Shown: positions 20,794-47,410 of the stretch, piece by piece | Layout: every line of letters begins with the position of its first letter | How positions within the stretch are numbered: the first letter of the stretch is position 1 | Virus record (IMG/VR): IMGVR_UViG_3300047496_000204 | Span: 10,764-74,763 of that record | Length of the DNA stretch: 64,000 bases | Reading direction: 5' to 3' (one strand) | From: a virus | Made by a program: the position numbers and the translations under genes | Notes under the pieces: model-generated | Databases searched by the model: none | What the model was told of the DNA's origin: nothing | Seen by the model: only the letters and a program-made list of their open reading frames with translations

Positions 20794-21387
20794 ATGATGA
20801 ACGAAAAACTTCCCCTCAAAATTACTTATTATGTAAGCGCATACGATGAAAGCGGGTATGGAGAAAATTGCTCCAAAGATTTCGGAACCGGCCAAGAAGC
20901 CGAAGCCGTAGCTTACGCGAAATCGTTGGAAGCTCGCATGGGAGCGCATGTTTACAAAAAAATATCCATGAATGATGTGATGATCAAAATCTTCCCAAAT
21001 GCGGAAGAGCCAATTCATTTAGAAAATAGAGCATGGTTTATCATGCGCCTTGATTTGCCGATGACACAAGGTAAGTTTGGCGTTCAGATCGGACATGGAA
21101 CTGACTTCATTCATATGATTGGATATAAAAATCCTTTCTACGAAAATTGGATTGATCCTGCTTGTGGGAACCGCCGTAAGATCGTTCTCAAGGCTAAGAC
21201 ACTCTCTGATATAGAAAAGCTTAAAGTCATCTGTGACGGACACGGAATGATTACAAAAATGATTGAAGACCGGGGTCTAACCGAGTTTGACGGGCCAACG
21301 ATTACCGGTATGGTGATCCTGCCCCACAATAATGATATTCCGACTGCGTTGAAGAGAACTCAAGTATGGAAATCAACTGATGGATGA
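20794..21387 (+). CDS. pth2: Peptidyl-tRNA hydrolase type II with an N-terminal extension
   Basis: RLDLPMTQGKFGVQIGHG, KIVLK and IEDRGLTEF. Confidence 0.8.
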   Translation: MMNEKLPLKITYYVSAYDESGYGENCSKDFGTGQEAEAVAYAKSLEARMGAHVYKKISMNDVMIKIFPNAEEPIHLENRAWFIMRLDLPMTQGKFGVQIGHGTDFIHMIGYKNPFYENWIDPACGNRRKIVLKAKTLSDIEKLKVICDGHGMITKMIEDRGLTEFDGPTITGMVILPHNNDIPTALKRTQVWKSTDG

Positions 21388-22899: not shown

Positions 22900-23044
22900 T
22901 GGTGCGCCGACTTGGATTTGAACCAAGGACCAGACCGTTTGCGCCTTTTTTGGGATCGAACCAAAGATTAAATCCTAACCATAGAAAGGCATTCACTATT
23001 ACTTGTATGAGCGGTCGGCTCTAACCGGACTGAGCTACCGGCGC
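22900..23044 (-). tRNA. tRNA-Met/Ile2(CAT) with a 67-nt insertion at 37/38 (22939-23005)
   Basis: GACCG-CTCATA[insert]A-CGGTC; intact D arm, T arm and CCA. Confidence 0.8.
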
Positions 23045-24483: not shown

Positions 24484-24614
24484 TGGTGCCCTCGGTCGGA
24501 TTCGAACCGACACTTGCGAGATTTTTGGGCGACGATTCCGGGTTTGCACCGTAATAGGGCGTGATTACCCTTTTCATCGAAGTCTCGTGCCTCTGCCAGT
24601 TGGGCTACGAGGGC
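24484..24614 (-). tRNA. tRNA-Leu (probably TAA after excision) with a 54-nt anticodon insertion (24526-24579)
   Basis: Leu-type D arm, CGAGA-CTT[insert]AAAA-TCTCG, CCA. Confidence 0.8.
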
Positions 24615-27040: not shown

Positions 27041-27132
27041 TGGTAGTCCTGCTTGGATTCGAACCAAGATCACGCTCCAGTCCGGAGCTTACAGAGTATA
27101 AATCTGCTGCACTACCGTTGTGCTACAGGACC
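27041..27132 (-). tRNA. tRNA-Ile(TAT) with a long variable arm
   Basis: GCAGA-TTTATAC-TCTGT, GCTCC/GGAGC variable stem, CCA. Confidence 0.85.
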
Positions 27133-44517: not shown

Positions 44518-44835
44518 GAAATATCTGATGGAAACTGTTTTAAAAGAACCAATTCTTCGTGATGATCACCCGATTTATGCGGATTATATTTACATTGCTG
44601 ATGGAAAAGTTTACATTTCGGATTGAAATTACGGTTCGAGAACTAAAGTCGAGAGAAGGTTTTACGGAAATCCGGAGATGCGATATATATGGCCGTAATC
44701 TCGGACATAAAATACAGAAAGAAGAAACAGATGTATCTTTCCCATTTCCAGAAAGAATTGCTCCTAAGCCTATTAGAGTGAAAAAGGCTGGAAAACATGG
44801 TAAGGTAAAGATTAAGAATAGATTTAAATTTAAAT

Positions 44836-44990
44836 GCCGGTTTAGCTCATTTGGTAGAGCGCCTGTTTGGAGGAAAGTGATCAGTGATCAGTGATCATAG
44901 AACATATCACCAGTGGATATGATGGTGCAAATCCAGAATCCTCAAAATTGTAATCAGGGGGCGGCAAGTTCGAAACTTGCAACCGGCGCC
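44836..44990 (+). tRNA. tRNA-Thr (GGT or TGT depending on the junction) with an approximately 80-nt anticodon insertion
   Basis: GCCGGTT/AACCGGC, CCTGT-TT[insert]TGTAA-TCAGG; insert contains AGTGATC x3. Confidence 0.8.
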
Positions 44991-45515
44991 CTAATAACTT
45001 TTTCCTTCGCTATATCTTTGGCGGCGAAACGCCCTGCCATTTCCAATATTCAATGCTTTAAAAGTTGGAGTTTGTGAATGACAATTTGGACAAAGCAATG
45101 TCGTGTTTTCTCGTGAATGATCATCGGAATTACCATTGATGTGTTCAATTTCCAAATATATAGGTAAATTATTCCAAGTAGTGTTTAAGCATTTCTGACA
45201 TTGATGCCCAAGTTCTTCTACGAGTTGTTTTTTCCTGCGCTTGGATGACCAAACAGAATTAGGGTTATTTTTAAATAATTCCCATTTATTTTTAAAGAAA
45301 CATCGTTGTGAGCAATATATTTGTCTCTGAGAATAGATAATAGTGCTACAATGTAGGCAAATTCCGTTCTCTTTATTTTTTCTAATTTTTTTATTTTTTG
45401 TTTTTGTAATCGATTTAGTTATTTTTGAAATTCTTTTAGTATTATTTACTGATGCCGAGCAAGAACGATTGCAAAAAATATTTCCATGTTTTCTTTTTTC
45501 ATAAGGAATTATCAT
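44991..45515 (-). CDS. HNH homing endonuclease
   Basis: LEIEHINGNSDDH...LLCPNCHSQT; the frame stays open upstream through a C2H2-like finger without a canonical start. Confidence 0.88.
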   Translation of the reverse strand: MIIPYEKRKHGNIFCNRSCSASVNNTKRISKITKSITKTKNKKIRKNKENGICLHCSTIIYSQRQIYCSQRCFFKNKWELFKNNPNSVWSSKRRKKQLVEELGHQCQKCLNTTWNNLPIYLEIEHINGNSDDHSRENTTLLCPNCHSQTPTFKALNIGNGRAFRRQRYSEGKSY

Positions 45516-46638: not shown

Positions 46639-46775
46639 GTGGCCTTAGCTCATCTGGAAGAGCGTCTGCCTTGGGAGAAAGCGGCTTATGGTCGTAGTTC
46701 AGTAATGACGGTGCAAATCCGGAATCTCCGTGAAGCACGCAGAAGGTGGTCGGTTCGAGCCCGACAGGCTACACC
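46639..46775 (+). tRNA. tRNA-Ala(TGC) with a 62-nt anticodon insertion (46674-46735)
   Basis: G3-U70 pair, TCTGC-CTTG[insert]CAC-GCAGA. Confidence 0.85.
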
Positions 46776-47410
46776 TTTTTCTTTTCTTGAATACGTTTCA
46801 GGCGTAAAGTTCTTCCGTTGCCTTTGTTTAGACTACCATAATTTGGAGTAAGACTATGGCAACTAGGACAAATTAATTCAAGATTTTCTGATTTATTATT
46901 ACTCCAATTTCCATCGATATGATTTACTTGAAGGGGAATTTTTCCTGTTGTTGGGTGTATTTCAGCCCAACCGCATTTTTTACATTTTGTATTATATTTT
47001 TCAAATAACCATTTTCGAATGTAAGTGGACACTTGACCTTCGCCTGTTATCCCATCTTCTATACCAGAAAGCCATTTATCAATAAAATTTTTATATTGAT
47101 AATTAGATTGACATTGCGGCCCACAATATTTTACAATTGTTTTTCTTTTTGGTATTTCTTTTTCGCATGAAGCACAGAAATTAACAGTTCTTCTCTTTTG
47201 ATTGTTGTATTCTGCTGAACAACTATGATTACAAAAATTATTCCTACGGTTTTCATATTCTATCAAACTATTGCAATTTCTACATAATTTTGGAGAATTG
47301 AGATATTTTGATTTAAGTTCTTGAGAATTTCTTTTTGCTGTCTGAATACAGATTTCAAAAAATTTATTATTTTCTGGTTTATTTTGTGGTCTTTTTGATA
47401 ATTTGCTCAT
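46769..47410 (-). CDS. HNH homing endonuclease
   Basis: LQVNHIDGNWSNNKSENLELICPSCHSLT; CATAAATA box at 47416-47423. Confidence 0.9.
   Translation of the reverse strand: MSKLSKRPQNKPENNKFFEICIQTAKRNSQELKSKYLNSPKLCRNCNSLIEYENRRNNFCNHSCSAEYNNQKRRTVNFCASCEKEIPKRKTIVKYCGPQCQSNYQYKNFIDKWLSGIEDGITGEGQVSTYIRKWLFEKYNTKCKKCGWAEIHPTTGKIPLQVNHIDGNWSNNKSENLELICPSCHSLTPNYGSLNKGNGRTLRLKRIQEKKKV

Follow-up and report, generated by a model that had tools for sequence, protein, structure and literature searches.

A tRNA-Ile2(CAU) gene in a phage record from a moss metagenome is interrupted in its anticodon loop by a 67-nt insert which itself carries an acceptor-like stem and a T arm, and this nested structure is genuine rather than an artefact. 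With high confidence, the insert can be assigned to the Lak-type family of tRNA-shaped introns, a family first seen in Lak phages that is widespread, yet barely described. Within the family it looks like an atypical member, either an intermediate or an eroded form, with a leader resembling an eroded version of that found in one of the two subtypes. The architecture of the insert and of its relatives is suggestive of a protein-dependent removal guided by the tRNA mimic.

The interrupted gene and its genome setting

The gene lies on the minus strand of the window (the whole 64,000-nt stretch of DNA that was analyzed), and its elements are collected in the table below. The outer cloverleaf shows 21 of 21 stem pairs and an encoded CCA, with an anticodon loop of 74 nt. 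The proposal of the initial annotation that removal of 22939-23005 restores a canonical 7-nt loop (CUCAUAA) was borne out. Removal of 22940-23006 works equally well and gives an identical product, so that the 36/37 and 37/38 registers are indistinguishable from this gene alone; on the evidence of the relatives (see below), 36/37 is the most likely site of insertion.

Elements of the interrupted tRNA-Ile2(CAU) gene (coordinates refer to the window)
Feature	Coordinates	Strand	Support or remark
Interrupted tRNA-Ile2(CAU) gene, CCA encoded	22900..23044	minus	Rfam tRNA 45.4 bits; full cloverleaf parse
5' exon, positions 1-36 (up to 37 = 23006 in the 37/38 register)	23007..23044	minus	
Insert, 67 nt	22940..23006 (36/37 register); 22939-23005 (37/38 register)	minus	
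Leader, 15 nt (14 in the 37/38 register)	22992..23006	minus	
Nested acceptor-like stem, 5' strand	22985..22991	minus	pair probability ~0.98
Middle, 19 nt, with D-loop-like TGGTT remnant	22966..22984	minus	
Nested T arm, 5 bp and 7-nt T loop	22949..22965	minus	perfect in sequence; disfavoured by nearest-neighbour folding
Nested acceptor-like stem, 3' strand	22942..22948	minus	7-mer identical in the L084 Ile2 insert
Discriminator-like C and one A, without CCA	22940..22941	minus	
3' exon, positions 37-76	22900..22939	minus	

The two elements originally described within the insert, a 7-bp acceptor-like stem (six Watson-Crick pairs and a terminal U-G) and a perfect T arm, are indeed both present. 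When the insert was shuffled 200,000 times with its dinucleotides preserved, a perfect T arm arose 19 times and the T arm together with a 7/7 stem only once; once the T arm is given, the probability of some upstream 7/7 stem is ~0.04. The description of the insert as a nested minihelix holds insofar as the acceptor and T-arm mimic is real, but the mimic fills the insert only in part and is preceded by a leader. Likewise, the reported absence of a D arm holds only in part, since the middle segment keeps a remnant of a D loop. A Logan contig from the source reads (depth 8) covers the whole split gene with zero differences, which argues against an assembly error, albeit from the same sample.

Nearest-neighbour folding assigned a probability of ~0.98 to the inner acceptor stem and of 0.01-0.02 to the inner T stem, a competing hairpin being preferred (by comparison, the T-stem probability exceeds 0.5 in 28 of 41 family inserts). 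As evidence against the inner T stem this is weak, because the outer D arm, too, goes unpredicted by this model. Neither a hairpin nor a pseudoknot was found in the leader (15-17 nt examined), which together with the AT of the anticodon reads ATACAAG, the same seven letters with which the Lak Gly intron opens, and no promoter for the gene was found above chance level. A 4-bp pairing between the anticodon and the leader end (~2 kcal/mol only) is not general among the relatives and was not used as evidence.

The outer tRNA combines a CAU anticodon with the pairs G3-C70, C4-G69 and C5-G68, the marks of tRNA-Ile2 rather than Met (PMC1635315), and its spliced junction region of 27 nt is common, without a single change, to 35 intact genes in viral contigs. 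The alternative CCA and CAA readings, corresponding to tRNA-Trp(CCA) (as called by ARAGORN) and Leu(CAA), were both rejected on account of A73, the Ile2 body and zero intact matches among the loci examined.

The virus record (134.5 kb, linear, estimated to be 26% complete) has syntenic relatives in contigs of 415 kb and 570 kb, and is therefore a fragment of a jumbo phage. It carries ~33 tRNA genes between 22.5 and 48 kb of the window, and a second AUA reader, tRNA-Ile(UAU), is encoded at 27041-27132. The split Ile2 is thus not the sole AUA reader, and selection on its gene may be weak. In the 570-kb relative, a Trp/Lys/Leu/Arg array includes an intact CAU tRNA, and the 415-kb relative has Ile(UAU) at that place. 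Among plasmids, an intact look-alike of the Ile2 tRNA finds its best matches in Bradyrhizobium and Methylobacterium, a weak hint that the host of the moss phage may be an alphaproteobacterium.

Upstream of the tRNA region lies a gene for a PTH2 peptidyl-tRNA hydrolase (20794-21387, plus strand), whose position is kept in related jumbo phages; the relatives of the upstream 102-aa ORF are without tRNAs. The two related jumbo phages encode several tRNA-like RNAs 3' of the tRNA array (L369:13400-13900 and L371:12480-13500, both on the minus strand), with T arms present and anticodon arms aberrant or missing, some of which are common to both phages.

Three further tRNAs of the moss phage contain anticodon inserts of 54-80 nt (24484-24614 on the minus strand, 44835-44991 and 46639-46775 on the plus strand). 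These share a T-loop core, GGTGCAAAYCC (3 matches versus 0.05 expected), and constitute a different insert family from that of the Ile2 insert. With three more T-loop inserts in the same phage, some removal route is probably needed there. Two HNH-type ORFs (44991-45515 and 46769-47410, both on the minus strand, the second matching HNH_3) end at two of these insert-bearing tRNAs; no such ORF is found beside the Ile2 gene.

Nested inserts in other phage tRNAs

A scan of IMG/VR with a pattern of two T loops ~40 nt apart revealed at least 40 further tRNAs in which a T arm and an acceptor-like stem are nested, giving 35 non-redundant inserts including that of Ile2. Their outer tRNAs are of the Asn, Thr, Phe, Gly, Pro, Lys, Arg, Glu and Ile types. 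Every stem column of the family shows several pair types, with the exception of G53-C61, which was fixed by the pattern. Conservation of the nested helix in homologs, which the initial annotation had named as a check, is confirmed at the level of the family: the architecture is kept in ~40 inserts of unrelated phage tRNAs, while the base pairs vary fully. Joined together, the exons of the relatives always make up a canonical loop of 7 nt, in which the anticodon fits the tRNA body and discriminator, and the inferred sites of insertion are after 34, 35 or 36, never clearly 37. A TGGT-type D-loop motif is enriched in the middles of the relatives (14 observed versus 3.6 expected, z ~6), which makes descent of the mimic from a whole tRNA probable. 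The same pattern applied to 185,579 species genomes returned 87 matches, only 3 of which parse as nested, and 2 of these 3, both on short MAG contigs, match phage inserts exactly. Within the limits of the pattern, the family is therefore essentially phage-borne.

Two subtypes could be distinguished by their boundaries. In the leaderless relatives, the mimic begins exactly at the end of exon 1; on its 3' side it extends to the discriminator, to the next base or through CCA. These boundaries are what 5' and 3' tRNA processing would give, which supports mimic-guided cutting. Four leaderless inserts (L006, L017, L021 and L099) have a full discriminator-CCA end, the mimic extending from +1 to A76, and are the cleanest candidates for a splicing assay. 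In the leader-type relatives, the mimic is preceded by a leader of 24-32 nt, for which an H-type pseudoknot is possible in 16 of 20 cases (several have clear second stems of 5-6 bp, few of them significant singly). Their acceptor-like stem is of 8 bp followed by C, and taking that C as the 3' end produces sensible 7-nt loops. The 5' boundary precedes NTA in 20 of 20 distinct leaders and falls after 34 (1), 35 (11) or 36 (8). Since the NTA start is kept while the site moves, leader-type boundaries are determined by the insert rather than by the tRNA.

The Ile2 insert has the general Lak-type layout, being located in the anticodon loop and yielding a canonical tRNA on removal, with a T arm stacked on the acceptor-like stem (5+7 bp) and a 2-nt tail (compared to a 7-8-bp stem and 1-4 nt to exon 2 in the family). 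On the other hand, it departs from the rules of both subtypes. From the leader type it differs in its short leader, which has neither the hairpin nor the H-type pseudoknot, and in a stem of 7 bp followed by CA. An ATAC resembling the NTA start of this type is present, but at 34/35, ahead of the Ile2 register by two bases. Imposing the leader-type rules on this copy (a cut before ATAC and another after C) produces a 6-nt loop. From the leaderless type it differs by the 15 nt that separate mimic +1 from exon 1.

The closest insert among the at least 40 listed, L084, is leaderless and also interrupts an Ile2 tRNA; like the Ile2 mimic, it measures 50 nt and has the same 3' 7-mer and a two-base tail. 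This similarity is no more than suggestive, and the L084 phage has no proteins in common with the moss-phage record. The L084 record itself (G021, 127 kb) has the split Ile2 as its only detected tRNA gene, and ARAGORN in its default mode finds none. Scans specific for Ile2 revealed two other Ile2 inserts (L084/L261 and L266), both leaderless. No copy of the Ile2 exon-insert junction was found in IMG/VR or annotated phages, and no second copy of the exact insert in the IMG/VR or JGI scans; a relaxed Ile2+ATAC scan gave chance matches only, as did a short-leader scan among the matches listed. In several metagenome contigs (L258, L260, L263, L265, L272 and L273), the 3' half of tRNA-Ile2, from anticodon to T arm, is repeated in tandem; these repeats probably represent repeated integration sites.

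Possible fates of the insert

We lean, with somewhat less than even confidence, toward a reading of the gene sequence in which the Ile2 copy would be spliced by proteins to a mature tRNA, through nucleases guided by the tRNA mimic and a subsequent ATP-dependent RNA ligase. The pre-tRNA would fold with a second 12-bp acceptor/T stack inside its anticodon loop. RNase P would cut at mimic +1 (22991) and a 3' endonuclease would cut one base beyond the discriminator of the mimic, whereupon a further nuclease of the host or the phage would trim away the leader of 15 nt as far as the anticodon. The ligase would then seal the two ends (3'-OH and 5'-P), kept together by the anticodon stem, the products being mature tRNA-Ile2 and a free linear minihelix. 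Expression of the gene, every cleavage, removal of the leader and ligation are steps that we infer. This reading is favoured because the outer tRNA is flawless and its junction matches the 35 intact genes; the evidence against it includes a leader shorter than in all leader-type relatives, a weak T stem and missing RNase P determinants.

With respect to these determinants, bacterial RNase P gauges an acceptor/T stack of 12 nt from the T loop, and its cleavage is helped by RCCA, U(-1) and G(+1) without strictly needing them (PMC10731613). The Ile2 mimic has the stack of 12 nt with its T loop but is without RCCA (the stem is followed by CAAA), and has A(-1) and U(+1) in place of U(-1) and G(+1). 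RNase P leaves a 3'-OH upstream and RNase Z a 5'-P downstream, and such ends suit ATP-dependent ligases, not RtcB. The suggestion of the initial annotation that the insert may be excised by RNase P and RNase Z could not be upheld for these two enzymes alone, since after their cuts on the Ile2 copy exon 1 would keep a 15-nt stub and exon 2 a surplus A, so that tRNA-Ile2 cannot be regenerated. RNase P and a 3' cut would, on the other hand, excise the leaderless relatives exactly.

A match to the ATP-dependent ligase family PF09414 was detected in 6 of 6 near-complete carriers (4 over the cut-off) and RtcB in none of these six. A ligase of the PF09414 type is also present in 6 of 8 near-complete control phages, so that its presence does not discriminate and an enrichment is not demonstrable. 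The moss-phage record was searched without success for genes of the Rnl1, Rnl2-type, RtcB, EndA or RNase Z-fold kinds, which at 26% completeness is uninformative for the whole phage. As a broader and more doubtful proposition, splicing in the bacterial host may follow a route new for any tRNA, in which mimic-steered nucleases would cut, the leader would be trimmed and a ligase would seal the exons, while the minihelix set free could insert itself anew into other cleaved anticodons.

The main rival, which we consider somewhat unlikely, is that the insert represents a decayed leader-type intron, unspliced or mis-spliced, in a young pseudogene covered by tRNA-Ile(UAU) and a host tRNA. It ranks first because the leader-type rules yield the 6-nt loop: an ancestor at 34/35 (ATAC start, C end, exon 2 = ATAA) would have lost its leader pseudoknot and one T of exon 2. 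The ATACAAG start shared with the Lak Gly intron and the position of the family NTA start at 34/35, two bases off the Ile2 register, are consistent with such a path, although the AT overlap may come simply from the CAU anticodon. Consistent with it are also the leader without a pseudoknot, the failure of the IMG/VR and JGI scans to find a second copy, the redundant AUA reader and the weak predicted inner T stem, but weak T stems are predicted for several clearly conserved relatives as well. Moreover, no other decay is seen in the exons, inner stem or T loop, and removal of the 67 nt still results in a perfect tRNA.

It is improbable that the halves are never religated and that the transcript acts instead as a double tRNA mimic or a processed decoy, aimed for example at anticodon nucleases of the host or at sensors of uncharged tRNA, the minihelix being the product that is of use. 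The mimic does retain a T loop, a 12-bp stack and the GG remnant of a D loop, and no dedicated splicing enzyme was found in the carriers or in the 26%-complete record. However, a canonical 7-nt loop with a fitting anticodon, as always formed by the summed exons of the relatives, is expected only if these are rejoined.

Even less probable is the other suggestion of the initial annotation, namely that one tRNA gene landed by accident within another and survives as an isolated fossil with no role in processing. The middle segment resembles a collapsed D loop and anticodon arm, and a near-complete tRNA inside one Lak intron (PMC6784885) makes a tRNA ancestry of the family likely. At the family level, though, an isolated accident is contradicted: the same design is found in nine or more types of tRNA, its boundaries precise and its stems covarying.

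Least credible of all is an intron of the archaeal/eukaryal type, cut by tRNA splicing endonuclease at 37/38 as initially proposed by analogy, or a self-splicing intron: the 37/38 register is formally possible, but there is no bulge-helix-bulge (intron bases -6 to -3 are GCGC, unable to pair with CUCA), the family sites are 34-36, the endonuclease domain PF01974 is found in 0 of 12 carrier phages (0 of 6 near-complete ones) and not in this 26%-complete record, with archaeal controls positive, no Rfam group I or II match appears even at E 10, and 67 nt is far below the size of known self-splicing introns.

Relation to known tRNA introns

The tRNA introns of Lak megaphages were reported as "enigmatic" (Devoto et al. 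2019, Fig. 4, Table S6), with no mechanism offered and a nested tRNA remarked for the Thr intron only (PMC6784885). Four inserts of Table S6 split the anticodon loop as the Ile2 insert does; by our own reading, each has a leader and an acceptor-like stem, followed by a middle, a T arm and, before exon 2, a short tail. Their leaders are structured and of 24-31 nt, with an 8-bp stem followed by C, in contrast to the unstructured 15-nt leader and the 7-bp stem followed by CA described here; the outer tRNA is in our case an Ile2, in a jumbo phage from a moss metagenome. In the same table, the introns assigned to Lak "tRNA-Tyr(GTA)" (L004, L045) are better read as interrupting tRNA-Asn(GTT), split at 35/36, because the short variable arm, G73 and the family boundary rule all fit Asn.

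Archaeal and eukaryal 37/38 introns (processed by EndA/TSEN with RtcB or Trl1) are similar in being short, non-catalytic inserts on the anticodon side that need protein cutting and ligation. They differ from the Ile2 insert in the bulge-helix-bulge, and from the family in their site and in the endonuclease, PF01974 being absent from the carriers searched; the signal of the family appears to be the tRNA mimic. Group I introns are known in the anticodon loops of bacterial tRNA-Leu(UAA), Ile(CAU), Arg(CCU) and fMet. One of them is reported for the Azoarcus tRNA-Ile(CAU) (PMC13168695). The Ile2 insert shares with these its location in the anticodon loop of a bacterial-type tRNA, but has no catalytic core, Rfam match or terminal G (it ends in A), and is far too short. 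A tRNA-mimic signal cut by RNase P and a 3' nuclease is known from the mascRNA of MALAT1. Similarly, in pre-tmRNA an acceptor and T-arm mimic guides RNase P and a 3' nuclease (PMC10731613). In both of these cases the cuts make ends and the flanking exons are not religated, whereas the Ile2 mimic lies inside an anticodon loop and is without RCCA.

To our knowledge, bacteria and phages are thought to splice tRNA through self-splicing introns only. The one paper found on tRNA-shaped introns (Devoto 2019) leaves them unexplained, and our literature search, which had most subscription journals outside its scope, found no paper on their mechanism. The occurrence of such short non-catalytic introns across many large phages would imply a protein-based splicing route. 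The Ile2 copy, as a boundary case that breaks both subfamily rules, is a weaker witness to this route than the leaderless relatives; set beside leaderless and full-leader inserts, it could reveal the role of the leader and the enzyme that sets each splice site.
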